Shown here: piece after piece, positions 5,220-44,735 of the stretch
How positions within the stretch are numbered: the first letter of the stretch is position 1
How the letters are laid out: the number at the start of each line of letters is the position of its first letter
From: an uncultured beta proteobacterium
GTDB taxonomy: Bacteria; Pseudomonadota; Gammaproteobacteria; Burkholderiales; JACQAP01
Assembly: GCA_963789945.1 (NCBI GenBank)
Contig: CAWBMN010000008.1
Span: 20,810 to 84,809 of the forward strand
DNA length: 64,000 bases
Reading direction: 5' to 3'
Translations under genes and position numbers: made by a program
The notes under the pieces: generated by a model
The model's database searches: none
The model's input: the letters and a program-made list of their open reading frames with translations, nothing else
What the model was told of the DNA's origin: nothing

Positions 5220-5864
5220 TTACTGGTGATAAGTCTTCGAGGCCTGCTGATCGTCCAGAGCGTCGCAAATGGCTTTGTTGGCGTGGAAGCCCACGCGAGA
5301 CGGGCTACCGACCAGCGACAGGAAGGCCTTCTGGATGGCGTACGCCTCCAACTCGCGGTAGTACCAGCGCTCACAGGGTTTGGCGTCTCCGCGTTCGTGA
5401 TTGACCTCCTGCACGTAATGCACCAACTCGTGCAATAGCACGGAACGGTCGAACAGGTTGGTTTCCGGTTTGAGGCGCTCGTCCAGGAAAATCCCTTCGC
5501 CCGGCTGATACGTGGCCAGCACGCGGCACTGCGAGGTACAAGCCAACTCCTGCAACCTCTCCTGCGGAACGCGAAGGATCTCCGGCACGGCAGTGGGCCG
5601 CGGGTATTTGGACAACTCATCGATGGCGGACAGCAAGGACGGCACCAGTTCGGCTTCGGTGAGCGGACGGGTGTCGCCCAGAAACCTATCGAACGTTGTC
5701 CGACCTTCATCCACATAATTGCTGTACATGCCGGGGGACTCGACGCCGCTCTGCTTGGATTTCGCGCGTTTGTCGGCGGCAAGGGCGGGCCACGCAAGGC
5801 TGAACGCGACCAGGAGACCCAGCAACAGAGTCCTAGTCTGACAGCGCGAAGCAAAAGATCCCAT
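5220..5864 (-). CDS. Secreted HEXXH (zincin-like) protein, DUF6647-like
   Basis: Signal-like segment ending ALA; SVLLHELVHYVQ...ELEAYAIQ; AAGGAG RBS before MGSF. Confidence 0.65.
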   Translation of the reverse strand: MGSFASRCQTRTLLLGLLVAFSLAWPALAADKRAKSKQSGVESPGMYSNYVDEGRTTFDRFLGDTRPLTEAELVPSLLSAIDELSKYPRPTAVPEILRVPQERLQELACTSQCRVLATYQPGEGIFLDERLKPETNLFDRSVLLHELVHYVQEVNHERGDAKPCERWYYRELEAYAIQKAFLSLVGSPSRVGFHANKAICDALDDQQASKTYHQ

Positions 5865-37093: not shown

Positions 37094-38485
37094 TCAGTCA
37101 TCGTCACGATCATGATGACCGTCATCGTCGTGGTCGCGGTCACCCCTCCTGCACTTCGGGCACGGCGCGGAAATCATAATGGTACGATCGACGCCGCTGT
37201 CGGGGTGCTGCACGTTGACGTAAGCAACATTCGGCTTGAACTTGTCGAAGTACAACCCGGTGCTTTCAGCGCCTTTGGTCGACAGGCTCGCCCACTTGCC
37301 GATGGCTTCGGCCACGCCGTCATTGTCCTCGTCCTTGGCAAACCAGATGTCTTCGACCCCGCCCGGCTGGTCTTCCACGATGTACATGTTGCCGTCTGCG
37401 TCGATCGCCAGGTTGTCGGGATTCGCGAAGATGTTGCCGACAGGCAGGCCGGTGGCCATGTCGATCGTGTTGCGGCTGGCGAACAGCTTGACCGTGTTGG
37501 TGCTCAGGTCGATGGAGAACACTTTGTGGTTGGTCGTGGTCGCCACGAACAGCATCTGCTTGCCGTGCTTCAGGGTCTTGATCTCCATGTCTTCCGGGCG
37601 GTCGAAATCGGTGCCCCGAAAGGCCGGCAGGTTCGGTGTGGCACGGCCGTCGATGGCGGTCTTGCCATTGGGGTCGGTAACGATGACCGCGCCGGGCAGC
37701 GGCACGCCATTGAAGTCGGTCAGCGGGATCCAAGTGGCAGCCCCGGTGGCTTCTTCAACCGTGCCATCACCCACGCGCAGCACGGATGTCTGGCCGGTGC
37801 GAAAGAAGTAATCGCCGTTGTGGGCGTTCGGGTCCGTGGAGGTAAACCTGAAGATGTGGCTGTTGTCGCGTTCGTCGATGAAGTACAGGTTCTTCTTTTT
37901 ATCGAACGCCAGGCCTTCATGGGATACGCGTGGCAGAATGTCGCGATGGACGAAATTGATATCGGCCGGAGCGGCCAAGGGATTGGTGACTTCGAACAGG
38001 CGGCCGTAAATGCTGGTCGGGTTGGCACCCGGATCGCTCCACGATTCTTCGGCGGTCAGGAAGCCGCCCCACGGCGTCCAGCGGGATGCGTCGAAGGCCA
38101 CGTGGCTGTTCAGCGCAGGAGCGGCAGCCGGGCTGGACCAGATGGTGGTGGTGATCATGGTGCGCAGATCGGTGCGCTGGATGCCGGCCTGGCCGGTTTC
38201 GAACACTGTAAACAGGAACCGGCCGGCGTCGGGGCCGGTTTCGTTCGCGGTGTGCATGTCGTAGCTACCGGTATCGAAGCGGGTGGCCTGGGCGGGATCC
38301 CGGGCAACGATAGTCATCTGGCTGAAGTGCGGTGCGGACAGCCGGTAGGGGGCGGCCGCAGGCAGGGTGTCGACACCCACATCGCCAGTCATGGGAGTGA
38401 AATCTTTGAAGGACGTGCCGGCGGCAAGAGCTGAAGAGCCAGCCAGTGCCAAGCCGATCGCAAGCGAAAGATTCTTGAGCATCAT
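37094..38485 (-). CDS. PhoX/DUF839 family alkaline phosphatase-like protein
   Basis: TPWG..LTAEE, SHEG, FDRPED, NPDNL, VED, GAESTG, VNVQHP. Confidence 0.82.
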   Translation of the reverse strand: MMLKNLSLAIGLALAGSSALAAGTSFKDFTPMTGDVGVDTLPAAAPYRLSAPHFSQMTIVARDPAQATRFDTGSYDMHTANETGPDAGRFLFTVFETGQAGIQRTDLRTMITTTIWSSPAAAPALNSHVAFDASRWTPWGGFLTAEESWSDPGANPTSIYGRLFEVTNPLAAPADINFVHRDILPRVSHEGLAFDKKKNLYFIDERDNSHIFRFTSTDPNAHNGDYFFRTGQTSVLRVGDGTVEEATGAATWIPLTDFNGVPLPGAVIVTDPNGKTAIDGRATPNLPAFRGTDFDRPEDMEIKTLKHGKQMLFVATTTNHKVFSIDLSTNTVKLFASRNTIDMATGLPVGNIFANPDNLAIDADGNMYIVEDQPGGVEDIWFAKDEDNDGVAEAIGKWASLSTKGAESTGLYFDKFKPNVAYVNVQHPDSGVDRTIMISAPCPKCRRGDRDHDDDGHHDRDDD

Positions 38486-38920: not shown

Positions 38921-39682
38921 ATGAATAGAATCTGCTTATCTTTGCTAGCCGCGTTTCTGGCAACCGCCAGCCTCTCTGAACACGCATTGAGTCAGGATTC
39001 GATGGCGCTTGCGAACGCTGTCGTCGCGGCGGCGGATCGCAGCCCTGAGGATCGCGCGCTCGACGCCGGCCGCAAACCGGCCGAACTGCTCGCCTTCCTG
39101 GGCGTACAGCCGGGCTGGCGTATCGCCGACCTGGGTGCCGGCGGCGGCTATACGACCGAGTTACTCAAGCGGGCGGTAGGCAGCGACGGCGCCGTCTACG
39201 GACAGAACTCCAAGAAGTTGCTGGAGATGTTCCTGGAAAAGCCCTGGAGCGCGCGGCTCTCAAAGCCGGCAATGAAGGGTGTCGTGCGTCTGGATCGCGA
39301 TTTCGACGATCCCTTCCCGGGCGACATGCGTCCGCTCGACGCGGTCACGATGGTGCTGTTTTATCACGACACAGTCTGGCTCGGGGTGAATCGCGAGGCC
39401 ATGAACAAGGCCGTGTTCACCGCACTTAAGCCGGGCGGTGTATTCGTGATTGTCGATCACAGCGCGCGGCCGGGGGACGGTGTCGATGTGGCCAATACGT
39501 TTCATCGGATTGACGAGAATATCGTCAAATCGGAAATACAGGCAGCGGGGTTCGTGCTCGATGGCCAAGCCGATTTTCTCCGCAACAAGGACGACACCCG
39601 GGATTGGAACGATTCGCCGCGCGCCGCTGGCGAACGCCGTGGCACCAGCGATCGGTTCGTTCTGCGCTTCCGGAAGCCCTGA
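38921..39682 (+). CDS. Predicted secreted SAM-dependent methyltransferase (COG4798-like)
   Basis: Signal peptide; RKPAELLAF, DLGAGGGYTT, YHD, LKPGG, HRID, DRFVLRFRKP. Confidence 0.85.
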   Translation: MNRICLSLLAAFLATASLSEHALSQDSMALANAVVAAADRSPEDRALDAGRKPAELLAFLGVQPGWRIADLGAGGGYTTELLKRAVGSDGAVYGQNSKKLLEMFLEKPWSARLSKPAMKGVVRLDRDFDDPFPGDMRPLDAVTMVLFYHDTVWLGVNREAMNKAVFTALKPGGVFVIVDHSARPGDGVDVANTFHRIDENIVKSEIQAAGFVLDGQADFLRNKDDTRDWNDSPRAAGERRGTSDRFVLRFRKP

Positions 39683-39717
39683 CCATTGGCTTCTTCAAAA
39701 TGTTGGAATGAGCTGGA

Positions 39718-40197
39718 ATGAGTGAGATCACGCTGGTGTCCATTGTTGCGGCGTTGGCGTTGGCAACCGCGTCCGGAGGTTGTCTGGCGAATGACTCGAC
39801 GACACAGAAGGATGAGACCACACAGGTCGGGGCGACGAAGCCGGACGGTCCAGCGGTTTGGCCCCGTACCCGATTTTTTGCAAGCGAACTCCGGGGATTG
39901 CAGCTGGGAGATTTACAGGTGGAAGCCCATTTCTGCGGTTGCAACGACAAACCCAACAAACACTTCCCGTATTCCCTCGTCTTGCTGAAAACTTCGAAGG
40001 GAGACCTGGTTGCAAGGCCTGAGCGTCTGGAAGGGGCAGTGACCTACACGCCATTGGCGGTCAGGCGCGGAAATGAATACTGCGAACTCGAGTCGGAAAC
40101 GCAATGTCACGGCTCGTTCCCGGACCCGTGCGATTTCACCGACTATATGTACGGGCCCCATCTGGCACCGTTCTTCCCTACGTGCAAAGACGGATGA
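39718..40197 (+). CDS. Hypothetical Cys-rich exported protein
   Basis: Signal-like N-terminus; HFCGC and C-terminal cysteines; no recognised domain. Confidence 0.6.
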   Translation: MSEITLVSIVAALALATASGGCLANDSTTQKDETTQVGATKPDGPAVWPRTRFFASELRGLQLGDLQVEAHFCGCNDKPNKHFPYSLVLLKTSKGDLVARPERLEGAVTYTPLAVRRGNEYCELESETQCHGSFPDPCDFTDYMYGPHLAPFFPTCKDG

Positions 40198-40219
40198 CGC
40201 TGAGCTGTCCCGGGATTAC

Positions 40220-41452
40220 CTAAAAGGAATACGGCAGGTTCAGCGACAACGTGAGATCCGGGCTGTCGCCGCCGACACCCATCGCGACCGCGGGCTCCAT
40301 GAACAGACCGCGCGCGAGCATCCAGGTCATGCCGAATTGCAGCTGGTAGCGCTCGCGCGGCGGCGGAATCGAAACGCCATCCGGCGAAACCGTGTTCCGA
40401 TAGGTACCGACGAAAAGCGTACTGACAGCGAGGACGTCGTTGAGCGCGTACGTATAACCGAGACTGAAGCCGAAGTTGTTCTTGGCGAGGGATCGCTGCG
40501 AATCCGCCGGATCGATCTCCAGCCCATACAAGTAGCTGAATCCGGCAAAAATCACCGCGGGATCGTAACTCTTGGAAAACACCAAACCCCCGCCCACTCC
40601 TTGGTCGCCCGGCCCGGTAGGCAACACCACGTCCAGGCTCCAGATGATGTTGGGTCGACCTGCCGCTTCCCGCGAGGCAACGCCGAGCAATGAAAGGGAT
40701 GCGTCCCCGATGTAGTCATCGCGGGTGACGAGCGCCGAGGTTGTGCCGCTTATCGTGGCGTCGGTATAGGTCGTGTCGCGGCGCGATACCCCGGGCACTC
40801 GCGCCGTGATTTGCAGGTCGTTGAGCAAACCATAGCGCAACGCGGCGTTGGCGCCGACCGCACGCTGCTCCTGCCGAATGACCGGGAACAACGTCTGCTC
40901 GCTGTAGGAATAGAAGACGCCAAAGTCGACGGTCGCTGCGCCCCGCTTGAGGAGTACGCTTTGATCGCGCAAGGCGATTTCCTCGGCTGTGGGCGTCGTG
41001 GGGCGCTCGCCAACGGTGGGCGGCGGACTGCTTGCCGGAGGTTTTGTATCCGGCGCGGCTTGCGAAAGGCGCGTCGAGGATTCCGGCGCCGCGCCTCTCG
41101 CGCGCAACGCGGGTAGTTCCCCGGCAAGCGCTTCCGCTGGATCGAGATTGCTCGATGGCGCCGGCACTATGCGCGGCGCGCCGGTAAACTGTGCGTCCTT
41201 CAACCATTCGAGCAACGCGGCGCGCGAAAAGCGCCACGTATCGCCGACGCGACGAGCCGGGATGCGGTGCGCTTCGGCCAGTTCGCGAACCACCTCGGGC
41301 CGTACCCGCAACAGCAACGCGGCTTCGTCGAGATCCAGCACCTCCAGGCTCGGGCTGGCGTCGGCGGCCACACAAGACGACGCGACCGGCAACGTACTCA
41401 AGAAAACCAGCGCGACGAGCGCGAGCAGCCGATGGAGAGTGGAGCAGGCCAA
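40220..41452 (-). CDS. FapF/MetA-pathway-like outer-membrane barrel with an N-terminal excisionase-type HTH
   Basis: Signal peptide; LDLDEAALLLRV....IPARRVGDTWRFSRAALLEWL; Pro-rich linker; LRYGL, GD.SL, PTG, KSYDPAVIF; C-terminal LPYSF beta-signal. Confidence 0.75.
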   Translation of the reverse strand: MACSTLHRLLALVALVFLSTLPVASSCVAADASPSLEVLDLDEAALLLRVRPEVVRELAEAHRIPARRVGDTWRFSRAALLEWLKDAQFTGAPRIVPAPSSNLDPAEALAGELPALRARGAAPESSTRLSQAAPDTKPPASSPPPTVGERPTTPTAEEIALRDQSVLLKRGAATVDFGVFYSYSEQTLFPVIRQEQRAVGANAALRYGLLNDLQITARVPGVSRRDTTYTDATISGTTSALVTRDDYIGDASLSLLGVASREAAGRPNIIWSLDVVLPTGPGDQGVGGGLVFSKSYDPAVIFAGFSYLYGLEIDPADSQRSLAKNNFGFSLGYTYALNDVLAVSTLFVGTYRNTVSPDGVSIPPPRERYQLQFGMTWMLARGLFMEPAVAMGVGGDSPDLTLSLNLPYSF

Positions 41453-41456
41453 AGCG

Positions 41457-42296
41457 TTACCTGTTCGGGAAGAGCAAGGGAATCGGCTTGCCGATCTCCA
41501 TCAAGCGCTCCGCGCTCAGCACTTCCAGCGGAGTGTCGGGCCCGCCGGCGAGCCGCAAAGCGTAGCGCTCCGGCCAGTCGCCCGCGGCTCTCTCCACCGC
41601 AAAGACCACGCCGCGACCGGACTCGTCGGACCACATATCGAGGAAGCGATAGAGCGGCATGCGCACATTTCCGAGCGAAGGGTCGGCGAGATGCACGCGA
41701 TCGCCCCGCAGGCCCTTCAACACCGCAAAGTGCTCGTAGCCGTGGGGCTTGATGAACACGATCACCGGCCGTGACAGCTTGGCAAGCTGAGACCGATGAA
41801 CGCGGAACCCCTGCGCCTTGTGGCCGCGTTTTTGCGCGAGTTGCTGCAGATCGAACAGCGACAGCCCTTTTTTCTGAAGCGCAATGAGCTCTTCGGGCGA
41901 GAGCGGCTCGAGCAACGCGCGCAATAGCACGTCCTCGTCGACCGGATCGTTCAGTCCATAGGTCAGCAGGGTCGCGAGCGCTGCCGAACCGCAGGAATAG
42001 TCGTAACGTTGCTTCACGACGCCCGCATCGCGTAGCGCGCGCAGGGACCTGACGTTGAACTCAGTCCTGGCAGCGCCGGCCTTGACGACGACTTGCGCGT
42101 CCGGGCACCCGCCGCCGCCGTGCTCTGCGGCCGCACATGAACCGACACCGGCCCGAGGGGAATCGTCCTGCGGCGCTTGGGCCCATGTGCCCGAGGCCAG
42201 CGTCGCAGCGAATAACACCGCGAACGTTCGCACGCCCGCGACGCGGACCGCTTGGGCGCGACCGGTTTTCCAGGAAGGCTCGACTGCGTTCGACAT
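41457..42296 (-). CDS. Stand-alone C39 family peptidase (FapD-like)
   Basis: VVKQRYDYSCGSAALATLL, GLSLFDL, HFAVLKG..ADPSLGN (Cys-His-Asp triad); signal-like segment ending TWA. Confidence 0.88.
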   Translation of the reverse strand: MSNAVEPSWKTGRAQAVRVAGVRTFAVLFAATLASGTWAQAPQDDSPRAGVGSCAAAEHGGGGCPDAQVVVKAGAARTEFNVRSLRALRDAGVVKQRYDYSCGSAALATLLTYGLNDPVDEDVLLRALLEPLSPEELIALQKKGLSLFDLQQLAQKRGHKAQGFRVHRSQLAKLSRPVIVFIKPHGYEHFAVLKGLRGDRVHLADPSLGNVRMPLYRFLDMWSDESGRGVVFAVERAAGDWPERYALRLAGGPDTPLEVLSAERLMEIGKPIPLLFPNR

Positions 42297-42412
42297 GGGC
42301 GAAATAACACTACCACATCGCCAAGCGCTTACGGATTCACCTCGCGCTGCATGCGGACGTGAAAACGGCCCCTTGTCGGGGCCGTCTTGGATCTTGAGCC
42401 GATGTGAAAAGA

Positions 42413-42781
42413 TTAGCAGGGGTTCGTGCCTGTGCCCCCGCCGACGCACGTGTAGAGGCCACGTTTGACGAATGCTGCGTTGATGGCTTCGGCGTTCGTC
42501 TGGTAATAAAGCGCCAGCCTTGTCGTCGCGGCCGCCAATCTCGTGCGACCGGCCTCGGTCAGCGCGGCAGCGGTGTCGAACAGTGCCGCTGCGATGTTGT
42601 ACGCGTTCAGCTCGCCGGAAATCGCGTCCATATCCTGGGACGACAACGCCTGTGCTTCAACGCCTTGCAGCGCCGAAAAACCGCTGTCGTCCTGCGATTC
42701 GGCAAACGCCGGGGTCAACAATAGCGAGCCGCTGAGAACTGCGGCGGCAAACAGTGACGCTAAGGCTCTGATTTGTTTCAT
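42413..42781 (-). CDS. Small secreted protein with a double-glycine-like leader (candidate C39 substrate)
   Basis: GAGGAG RBS; Sec signal ending AFA; ALSSQDMDAISG motif; Ala-rich body; C-terminal C-x9-C. Confidence 0.72.
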   Translation of the reverse strand: MKQIRALASLFAAAVLSGSLLLTPAFAESQDDSGFSALQGVEAQALSSQDMDAISGELNAYNIAAALFDTAAALTEAGRTRLAAATTRLALYYQTNAEAINAAFVKRGLYTCVGGGTGTNPC

Positions 42782-43067
42782 GGCTGATGGCTCCTCATAG
42801 CGAATGCTGCCACCGTGGCAGCAGAAAGGACAACATATCATGAGTATTCATACCCTCCCTTGCAGATTCTTGGCTTGACCTATGTCAAACGTGGAACGTC
42901 CTTCGGCAAGCCTGGCGCCCATGAAGGTGCTCGCGCCCATGCCGGCCTGTTAAGTCATCGCCACCAGATACCTCAGCCGTTTCGAGTGGTGGCGCAAGTC
43001 CGATCCCTTATCCCCTTTTTCCTATTCCCTTAGGCAGTCGCCGCACTCGCCACCCAGCACAGGTTTT

Positions 43068-43165
43068 CCTCATCCCCGCGCCTGGCAGATCTGCGGGTCC
43101 ACCCGGAACCCCGCCGCGGGACCATAGGCGCAGGCCGCTCCGTTCTTGTCCACGTATGTCAACTT
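43068..43165 (-). pseudogene. Orphan 3' remnant of the matrixin gene (copy of 22424-22521)
   Basis: Ungapped match of about 95 nt with about 10 mismatches, including the stop codon; encodes VDKNGAACAYGP. Confidence 0.85.
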
Positions 43166-43224
43166 TCTCTGCATGCCAAGCCTTGTATCTTGAATTGCGA
43201 AGTTGAGTAGTGTTGCGTTCGGCC

Positions 43225-43251
43225 CGCCGCAGATCGTTACGCCGGGAAGTT
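43225..43251. repeat. 27-nt exact direct repeat of the amidohydrolase 3' end (47055-47081)
   Basis: CGCCGCAGATCGTTACGCCGGGAAGTT at both sites; spans the stop codon. Confidence 0.85.
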
Positions 43252-43418
43252 TCGAACCTGGACCGGCGGATTGTGGACCGGGGTCTGCGTGAACTGGGTC
43301 CTATGCATGCAACACCAAGCCAGACCACCCTTTCGTCTTTGTATTGGCGGTGCGTCGGCAAAGAACGCCGGATTCTGCGTCAAGTCCGCGATCCGGCTCG
43401 CGCGCAAAATTCGCCTCC

Positions 43419-44735
43419 ATGAACACGACCTCTTTGGCCCTCGATCACCTCCTGCGCGCCGTGGGCGATCCGGTCGCCGAGCTACGCGACATCGGTCTCG
43501 GTCATCCGGAGTTCGATCGAGCACAGACGATCCGGGCCGCAGCCGGCGTCCTCGCGAAAACCCCGGATACCTTTCCCGCAATCGCACAGGCGATCCGGGC
43601 GGTCGATGAGCTTGCGGCATCGCCACGAACACGCGCCCACCTTGCCGCGGCCAAAGCGTGGCTGTCCGGGAACCCGGTCCTCGCCGCTGAAAGTTATGCC
43701 TTCATCCTGGGCCGGTGGCCTCGGGATTTGCTGGCGCTGCGGCTCGCGCTGTCGTGCTACTTCTACCTGGGCTGGCATGAGCAGCTTTGCGCGCTCGTCG
43801 ATGCAGTAATCCCGGCGTGGAGGCGCGATCAGCGCGATTTCGGATTCGTGCTTGCCATGGCGTCGTTCGCGCACGCTGAAACCGGCGACGGAGCGCGCGC
43901 CGAGGCACTGGGGCGGGAAGCGCTGGCGGACGACCCTGCCTGCCCGTTGGGTGTGCACGCGGTCGCGCACGCGTTTGCCGGGTCCGGGCGGCACCGCGAC
44001 GGCGCGCAATGGATGCGCGATCAGCGTGGCCACTGGGCCACGCAGAGCCGCATGTGCACTCACAACGCATGGCATCTCGCCATGTTCGACGCCGAGGCGG
44101 GAAACGTTGCGTCGGCGCTGGGCATACTCGACACCTGGTTGCTTCCCGCCAGCGCGGGATCGGCACCCGATGCGTGCGACGCCGCTGCGCTGTTATGGCG
44201 CCTCGCGACCGACGGGGTGGACGTCGAAGGCCGCTGGCGCAAGGTTTCCGACGCCTTCGAACGGACAATGACCCCGGGTTTCTGGCCCTATATCGACCTT
44301 CATGCGGCTCTCGCACACTTCAGTGCCGGGCAAAGGGCGCGGGCGCAACGTCTGGTACATGAGATCGAGCGCTGTGCGGGAGGCAGCGACTACTCGGCGC
44401 TGCGGGCGCGGCACGTCACCCGGCCGGGTCTGCGTGCGCTCGGCGCCTGGAGCGAAGGCCGTTATGGCGAGGCAGCGGAGTTACTTGCAGGCCTGCAACC
44501 GGTTCTCGGCGACGTTGGCGGAAGCCGCGTCCAGCTCGAAGTCTTCAAGTGGATCGAGCACGAGGCCGTCCGTCGGCAGCACGCCGAGCAATGCCAGCAA
44601 CCTCGACCCCCAGCAGCAAAGGAGCAAGCCCTGCCCCGGATCAAAGGTGCTTTCTTCGAGCCGCAGAAAAAACGGATTGCCTCAAGCTCCGCGTTCACCA
44701 CCCGGCGCACAACCCCAATAGCCGTGGAGAGTTAG
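43419..44735 (+). CDS. TPR protein, TTC38-like
   Basis: WPRDLLAL, GVHAVAH, HNAWHLA, DAAALLWRL, GGSRVQ. Confidence 0.75.
   Translation: MNTTSLALDHLLRAVGDPVAELRDIGLGHPEFDRAQTIRAAAGVLAKTPDTFPAIAQAIRAVDELAASPRTRAHLAAAKAWLSGNPVLAAESYAFILGRWPRDLLALRLALSCYFYLGWHEQLCALVDAVIPAWRRDQRDFGFVLAMASFAHAETGDGARAEALGREALADDPACPLGVHAVAHAFAGSGRHRDGAQWMRDQRGHWATQSRMCTHNAWHLAMFDAEAGNVASALGILDTWLLPASAGSAPDACDAAALLWRLATDGVDVEGRWRKVSDAFERTMTPGFWPYIDLHAALAHFSAGQRARAQRLVHEIERCAGGSDYSALRARHVTRPGLRALGAWSEGRYGEAAELLAGLQPVLGDVGGSRVQLEVFKWIEHEAVRRQHAEQCQQPRPPAAKEQALPRIKGAFFEPQKKRIASSSAFTTRRTTPIAVES

Follow-up and report, generated by a model that had tools for sequence, protein, structure and literature searches.

An excisionase-type helix-turn-helix domain joined to a FapF-like outer-membrane barrel in a three-gene cassette of soil bacteria

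What does a fold that normally belongs to DNA-binding proteins do between a signal peptide and an outer-membrane barrel? The question is raised by a gene on a 64,000-nucleotide stretch from an uncultured beta proteobacterium (contig CAWBMN010000008.1, positions 20,810 to 84,809), the whole of which is called the window here, with positions counted from its first letter. The gene (40220..41452, minus strand) is a single continuous open reading frame (ORF) of 410 aa, which starts with TTG 5 nt past the stop codon of the upstream gene and ends with its own stop codon at 40220-40222. It encodes, all on the minus strand, a signal peptide (residues 1-30, 41363..41452), visible in the sequence as a hydrophobic segment with a small-x-small site at its end, after which signal peptidase I probably cleaves; a winged helix of the HTH_17/excisionase type (residues 38-85, 41198..41341), hereafter the helix-turn-helix (HTH) domain; a Pro/Ala-rich linker, variable and predicted to be disordered (residues 86-145, 41018..41197); a conserved pre-barrel segment (residues 146-172, 40937..41017); and a FapF-like outer-membrane beta-barrel (residues 173-410, 40223..40936). 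A first-pass annotation, made from the letters alone, had described a hydrophobic signal-like segment directly before an HTH_17/Xis pattern that runs in frame through a Pro-rich linker into a FapF-like barrel. That description held: the segment is there and is kept in homologues, two family models match the domain above their cut-offs, the whole is one frame, and the best structural matches of the barrel in the PDB are FapF chains. The architecture, the three-gene cassette to which the gene belongs and the export of the HTH domain, taken jointly, are in our judgement very probable. The complete explanation that we favour, in which this layout, a periplasmic location and a mechanism are put together and the HTH domain serves as an adaptor or gating module, has a probability of roughly 0.5.

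The identity of the domain was defined by family models and by predicted structure. Pfam HTH_17 (PF12728) matched residues 38-85 with an E-value of 1.7e-11 (44.6 bits, cut-off 27), and TIGR01764, 'excise', scored 37.1 bits against a cut-off of 28.8. The full-length AlphaFold2 (AF2) model, built from 24 homologues, has a beta-alpha-alpha-beta-beta-alpha unit at residues 38-89, predicted with a per-residue confidence (predicted local distance difference test, pLDDT) of 72-87, then disorder at 88-156 (pLDDT <50) and the barrel at 173-409. Folded alone from 44 sequences, the domain kept the winged-helix topology at pLDDT 75. Its neighbours by Foldseek are BldC (target-normalised template modelling score, TM, 0.69-0.80), the excisionases RdfS and Pukovnik Xis, DNA-binding proteins of P2 and lambda, and the MerR family; by sequence, BldC was reached only marginally in a profile search (E 0.05-0.065). 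A single-sequence search of the PDB with the domain returned only 'OT3' at E 0.025, which was taken as noise. The ratio of nonsynonymous to synonymous substitution (dN/dS), as a median over pairs of 47 distinct genes, was 0.16 for the HTH domain, the lowest of the four segments compared, followed by 0.23 for the pre-barrel segment, 0.27 for the barrel and 0.57 for the linker. Judged by these ratios, the domain is under functional constraint.

Could the fusion be an artefact? A small excisionase gene might have been fused to a barrel gene through a fault in assembly or an indel, or translation might in truth begin past the hydrophobic segment; the TTG start codon, the in-frame GTG codons at residues 28 and 38, and the name 'excisionase family DNA binding protein' that IMG gives to many homologues would all fit such an account. 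The distribution of the architecture speaks against it. A search of a protein collection found 180 homologues; among the 120 listed (identities 52-100%), 107 carry PF12728 in their precomputed annotation. A profile search of 1.84 billion cluster representatives (50%-identity clusters) gave 124 matches below 1e-30, and when the best 150 representatives were sorted with our own hidden Markov models of the two parts, 97 had both HTH domain and barrel, 49 the barrel only (many of these being fragments) and 4 the HTH domain only. Named genome records contributed 15 loci, from metagenome-assembled genomes of Burkholderiales/Betaproteobacteria and Acidobacteriota/Terriglobales plus two labelled Gammaproteobacteria and Enterobacteriaceae, and a metagenome scan contributed 69 further loci. 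Counting the window and only loci that include the N-terminal part of the barrel, all from independent assemblies, the HTH domain lies in the same frame as the barrel in 62 of 73, a continuous layout shared by two phyla.

The start and the frame were examined in the same way. At least 15 residues precede the HTH domain in 95 of 100 HTH-bearing cluster representatives (median length of the preceding part 34 aa), and a strongly hydrophobic 11-mer is found there in 84 of these 95; the others have the look of fragments or of genes with a miscalled start. A barrel lacking a signal peptide, moreover, would be unable to reach the outer membrane. At the level of reads, contigs of three independent soil DNA runs showed no indels wherever they cover the stretch, with run X3 covering 41043-41627; the share was at most 0.30 in every run concerned, and the uncovered parts are uninformative. 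Two 'skips' occur in single low-identity contigs of run X1 and carry no information on continuity. Two of the checks proposed in the first-pass annotation, a search for the same architecture in independent genomes and inspection of frame continuity in reads, came out in its favour, and none of the circumstances it had named as fatal (an indel artefact, an architecture unique to one genome, a start downstream of the signal) was found. We consider the chance of an artefact negligible: as far as sequence data go, the fusion is genuine and widespread in soil bacteria. The 'excisionase family DNA binding protein' names on these outer-membrane barrels are probably a systematic misannotation, which arises because only the short HTH domain has a Pfam model. 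A lipoprotein reading of Cys27 was also considered and rejected, since the preceding residues do not fit a lipobox and homologues have His or Pro at position -1; cleavage by signal peptidase I a few residues past Cys27 appears likelier from the sequence than lipoprotein processing. The barrel gene is single-copy in its own genome. A full-length match was absent from all 36 same-genus genomes searched, and one of 24 same-order genomes searched holds a copy of 71% identity; the distribution of the cassette is therefore patchy. A 289-base contig of a soil metatranscriptome (X18, matching 40526-40814) is identical to the barrel gene; it does not demonstrate expression, because it may be carried-over DNA.

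The barrel itself points to FapF. The NCBIfam FapF model (NF058560) matched the C-terminal part with E 1.3e-17, the best stretch spanning residues 277-410, at 63.7 bits against an equivalog cut-off of 700; FilC, a putative pilus system protein (NF050079), followed with E 2.3e-7 and 30.5 bits against 630. The best PDB matches of the barrel model by Foldseek were FapF entries 5o65, 5o67 and 5o68 (E 3e-15, target-normalised TM 0.63-0.66, 22-24% identity), and as modelled the barrel is a 12-strand one of the FapF type. NalP and EstA are structural neighbours weaker than FapF, and no autotransporter (type Va) Pfam family matched the protein at E ≤0.1. The same threshold gave no match of the window protein to PF13557 (Phenol_MetA_deg/COG4313-type), which matches 8 of 10 distant family members scanned, 7 of them above the cut-off of 22; entry 4rl8 is also a structural neighbour of the barrel. 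The pre-barrel segment is near-invariant across the family alignments and is present in distant relatives and in relatives without the HTH domain. By analogy with FapF it is the probable plug helix, although the helix that AF2 places there is short and of low confidence. The HTH domain had been proposed, among other roles, as a plug. This is unlikely, because a separate conserved segment (~146-172), itself the probable plug, lies downstream and is shared by relatives without the domain.

Because it is placed between a Sec signal and an outer-membrane barrel, the HTH domain should be exported. Its position is indeed, as the first-pass annotation had it, the one at which FapF has a periplasmic coiled coil, and by analogy the domain would lie in the periplasm on a flexible tether in place of that coiled coil. 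The replacement could be purely architectural: the domain might hold three barrels together or form a periplasmic platform and bind no substrate. Some of its structural neighbours, such as BldC, multimerise on DNA; the fold is not known to form trimers in the absence of DNA. Relatives with a coiled coil occur in one same-genus and one same-order genome, which speaks for such a role, and relatives with neither the HTH domain nor any other module also exist, which speaks against it. According to the accessible text of the FapF paper (PMC5557850), the coiled coil is periplasmic and trimeric, and the accessible parts of this paper and of a 2018 paper (PMC6173795) have it needed for secretion; the former also describes the trimer interface as formed by the barrels themselves, and the latter, in the part available, gives all FapF homologues coiled coils. 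We regard an architectural role without substrate binding as distinctly unlikely.

How fixed is the HTH domain in its place? Several other modules fill the same slot in front of a common plug segment and barrel. In P0216 an AMIN domain (PF11741, 2.7e-11) occupies residues 63-139, which suggests that AMIN, a cell-wall-targeting module, has replaced the HTH domain there. Beta-rich domains with no Pfam match stand in the slot of P0244, P0250, P0258 and P0260, and a coiled coil in L003 and L004, each near a C39 peptidase gene. The slot is empty in P0093, P0094, P0108, P0112 and L069, where the signal peptide is directly followed by the plug segment. The L004 cassette, in a same-genus genome (1134-3329, minus strand), consists of a coiled-coil barrel of 369 aa, a C39 protein of 211 aa and a small protein of 128 aa with a canonical double-glycine leader past its Sec signal; L003, in a same-order genome, has its C39 gene close by on the opposite strand. 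This shows that a single genus contains both the coiled-coil and the HTH version. The 102 barrel domains were placed in a quick maximum-likelihood tree with midpoint root, some of whose 'short' rows come from truncated gene calls. There the HTH-less and AMIN forms lie within clades that bear the HTH domain, whereas the beta-rich clade and the pair with coiled coils branch outside them; going by the starred branches, the short label must have changed at least 7 times. From the slot variants and this nesting it follows that the HTH domain is an accessory of long standing, kept in many lineages but open to loss or replacement. It is not a core part of the system, since relatives carry a coiled coil, AMIN, a beta-rich domain or nothing in its stead.

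We asked what the barrel works with. It is encoded last in a cassette whose order is a small Sec-exported protein, a periplasmic C39 peptidase and the barrel. The C39 gene directly upstream (41457..42449, minus strand) has its probable true start at Met52 (nt 42296), the position at which its homologues begin before continuing into a signal peptide. It matched Pfam Peptidase_C39 with E 4.3e-18 and, in NCBIfam, FapD and FilB with 2.2e-27 and 7.3e-27, both below the cut-offs (95.8 bits against 330). Gln147, Cys153, His240 and Asp256 are invariant in 35 C39 sequences and are read as the predicted catalytic set. The small-protein ORF (42413..42841, minus strand; probable start Met21, nt 42781) matched no Pfam or NCBIfam family. 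An alignment of 35 of its sequences has a Sec signal followed by a strongly conserved LSxxEMxxIxG segment (residues ~55-77), a leader of the double-glycine type in which an invariant Gly is followed by Glu or Gln; past the leader comes a helical-looking part of ~65 residues that ends in a Cys pair in most homologues. The small protein is the probable substrate of the cassette, and its sequence looks like that of a bacteriocin-like or signalling peptide that would be exported in two steps. The arrangement is conserved. All 50 loci whose sequence extends 1300 nt or more upstream have a C39 gene immediately before the barrel. Where it extends 2600 nt or more, 29 of 33 also have the small gene, and the four that lack it come from an acidobacterial lineage with a split C39 frame; the complete set of three genes is present in more than 25 loci; no other neighbour in the window is conserved in related loci.

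These components suggest a route. The small protein would be exported by Sec with its double-glycine-type leader, processed by the stand-alone periplasmic C39 peptidase and released through the FapF-like plugged 12-strand barrel. The HTH domain, no longer reading DNA, would act as a protein-directed adaptor or gate-control module: a conserved face of Arg and Trp residues on its wing would bring to the channel, and hold there, either the substrate with its acidic leader or the peptidase, or the two of them, and the domain would act through the linker on release of the plug. Such a role is the one suggested for the coiled coil and linker of FapF in the accessible part of the FapF paper (PMC5557850). 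There is also a precedent for protein binding by this fold: the MerR-like CbpM (entry 3ucs), in complex with a protein partner, is among the structural neighbours of the domain, although far down (rank 34) and weak (E 0.28). We give an adaptor or gating function, as opposed to DNA binding, about an even chance. Three runs of complex prediction with the C39 core, the small pro-protein and the HTH domain scored 0.60, 0.00 and 0.00, and count neither for nor against binding.

The linker carries a further clue. Residues 112-120 (41093..41119, minus strand) have the pattern acidic-L/M-x-x-I/L/V-x-G/A-R/K-G, which resembles the leader of the small substrate. The linker is variable in both length and sequence in the homologue alignment, and yet, among representative linkers, 51 of the 91 that are HTH-type and 9 of the 25 that are HTH-less contain the core of this pattern, compared with means of 1.6 and 0.8 (maxima 6 and 4) in 200 composition-preserving shuffles, which corresponds to an enrichment of ~30-fold and ~11-fold. 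It also occurs in the coiled-coil relative L003, the AMIN relative P0216 and in P0220, P0244, P0133, P0134 and P0136, that is, whatever N-terminal module the barrel carries. Going by sequence, the motif is a candidate docking or cleavage site for the C39 peptidase. If it is cleaved, the HTH domain could be a removable pro-domain, released together with the motif to leave a mature channel that resembles the HTH-less forms; it would then serve only before the cut, in folding, in targeting or in keeping the channel inactive. The enrichment, the parallel with the substrate leader and the presence of the motif behind a coiled coil and AMIN would all agree with this, as would the natural short forms, which start just upstream of the plug segment. 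The accessible part of the FapF paper (PMC5557850) likewise raises as a possibility that FapD cleaves at GG/GA motifs in the FapF linker. Cleavage at the motif is, for its part, a prediction; the core pattern, as written, is absent from 40 of the 91 HTH-type linkers. If the motif is aligned with the canonical leader, the residue before the presumed cut is Arg or Lys and not Gly. Nor would a domain destined to be discarded obviously be expected to have the lowest dN/dS of the four segments. A pro-domain is unlikely in our view.

The surface of the domain bears on whether it still binds DNA. The comparison covered 97 domains of the periplasmic type and, from same-order genomes, 22 ordinary HTH_17 domains. 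Median net charge was 0 in the former and +3 in the latter, although the ranges overlap (-4 to +7 in both sets) and the Mann-Whitney p of 4e-5 overstates the difference, since sequences within each set are related to one another. The recognition helix opens with Thr in 73% of ordinary domains, but with Glu (37%), Asp (15%) or Val (12%) in the periplasmic-type set; the Ser before and the Tyr/Arg after this position are altered as well, and similar replacements appeared in a profile alignment to BldC. Both the hydrophobic core and the wing are kept, and the wing, in which two Arg positions reach 96% and 99%, a Trp 95% and a Phe 96%, is more conserved than in ordinary HTH_17 domains. The polar or basic recognition helix and net positive charge typical of DNA-binding members of the family are not seen in the periplasmic-type set, with the overlap in charge ranges as a reservation.

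Several points weigh against the adaptor reading, the overlap in charge and the inflated p value among them. The conserved basic residues of the domain presumably sit where ordinary HTH_17 domains touch the DNA backbone, so that non-specific polyanion binding is possible. HTH-less loci (L019, L058 and L069) retain the same peptidase and substrate genes, and capture by the HTH domain is therefore not essential. The substrate leader and the peptidase are candidate partners only; a location in the periplasm, as opposed to the surface, relies on homology to FapF; signal peptides were judged by a hydropathy heuristic only; and the mean pLDDT of the full-length model is low, at 66.

The same basic residues open the way to another function, in which the domain, outside the cytoplasm, keeps a non-specific affinity for the DNA backbone or binds some other anionic polymer of the envelope. 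It would thereby tie the channel to DNA in the periplasm or outside the cell, to peptidoglycan stems or to the head groups of lipids. The Arg residues on the wing and where helix 2 begins have been kept, with a higher conservation than ordinary HTH_17 domains show, and AMIN, the cell-wall module, stands at the same slot in a nested relative, a hint that the slot can accommodate anchoring to the envelope. Against this stand a net charge near 0, acidic residues in the recognition helix and the tip of the wing, and, by FapF homology, a periplasmic and not a surface-exposed position. The gene context offers no help either: synteny is confined to the small gene and the C39 gene, and no competence, nuclease or DNA-handling gene is conserved beside the cassette. 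The suggestion of the first-pass annotation that the channel handles nucleic acid fared poorly on both counts, with a cassette made up of a small leader-bearing protein and a C39 peptidase and an HTH domain that is neutral in charge and whose recognition helix no longer has its usual Ser, Thr and Tyr positions. We consider anchoring by polyanion binding improbable, and the more specific proposal that the Arg-rich wing binds nucleic acid or another polyanion, tethering the channel to periplasmic or matrix DNA and coupling secretion to the presence of DNA, a long shot; were it true, a DNA-binding fold would be working outside the cytoplasm within an outer-membrane machine.

The cassette varies among loci in ways that touch its other genes. 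In L072-L074 the small substrate gene is duplicated in tandem upstream of the C39 gene. In six loci (L019:4619-5929, L058:430-1767 and L071-L074) the C39 protein has an N-terminal domain like that of L019, where it matches POTRA_2 (ShlB-type, PF08479) at 3e-8. The idea that loss of the HTH domain is offset by a POTRA domain on the peptidase was discarded, as POTRA-C39 proteins also accompany HTH-bearing barrels (L071-L074) and the HTH-less L069 has a plain C39. In the acidobacterial lineage of L017 and L098-L101 the C39 frame is split at the same place into two ORFs; in the L017 gene (5195-5884) an in-frame TAG (5510-5512) was read where relatives have Gln, this being the one locus in which the codon was read. 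The small gene was not found in these five loci, in which the HTH-barrel gene is intact, so that they may hold a decaying cassette or one whose barrel is kept for another use. In the window, the cassette is flanked by two ORFs of 463 aa, one at 37094-38485 (minus strand) with a signal peptide and a His/Asp-rich tail and one at 43344-44735 (plus strand) with no Pfam match; neither was found in the related loci searched. A scan of 39600-43500 gave 0 promoter-like and 3 terminator-like signals, the latter against 4.0 expected.

What is new here, and so far undescribed, is that an outer-membrane secretion system of the Fap type has, for its periplasmic module, a DNA-binding fold put to another use. 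In the mainly open-access literature searched, supplements excluded, neither an HTH_17/excisionase domain on a FapF-like barrel nor this cassette is described, and no paper on FilB/FilC with C39 was found there. A DNA-binding fold in a swappable slot is an unusual case of domain repurposing across compartments. The accessible part of the FapF paper (PMC5557850) leaves open the role of the FapF N-domain and linker and the cleavage target of the periplasmic C39, and a compact cassette of three genes, with a clear candidate leader in its substrate and a leader-like motif in the linker of its channel, is a tractable system for both.

Compared with the HTH_17 DNA binders (BldC, RdfS, Pukovnik Xis, MerR), the exported domain passes the family cut-offs and shares the predicted fold, the hydrophobic core and the wing, but it follows a signal peptide, is fused to an outer-membrane barrel, is neutral in charge and has acidic or aliphatic residues for the Thr, Ser and Tyr of the recognition helix. 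CbpM, which binds the J-domain of CbpA, uses the same class of fold for protein-protein contact; unlike the domain described here it is cytoplasmic, and the match between the two is one of structure and not of sequence, and a weak one. With bacteriocin and microcin export by ABC (ATP-binding cassette) transporters that contain a peptidase the cassette shares an LSxxE(L/M)xxIxG-type leader and a C39 peptidase with invariant Cys, His, Asp and Gln. In contrast to those exporters, in which it is one domain of the inner-membrane transporter, the peptidase is here exported as a protein in its own right, the leader comes after a Sec signal, and exit through the outer membrane would be by a barrel and not by a TolC-type duct; if aligned with the canonical double-glycine motif, the leader has Glu or Gln, and not Gly, as its last residue. 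The closest likeness is to FapF and FapD: the barrel fold, the order of signal, periplasmic N-module, disordered linker, plug and barrel, the adjoining stand-alone periplasmic C39 peptidase and Sec-dependent substrates. There are also differences from Fap. The N-module is HTH_17 where FapF has a trimeric coiled coil; the cassette has three genes, among which none like FapA, FapB, FapC or FapE was found, the scan for Fap families having covered less than the whole window; and the substrate is a helical protein of ~65 residues, usually with a C-terminal Cys pair, and not a repeat amyloid subunit. Seen beside this cassette and that of L004, the Fap route, with Sec, a periplasmic C39 peptidase and a plugged barrel, would seem to be a specialised case within a broader, modular class of systems that export small proteins with a leader.

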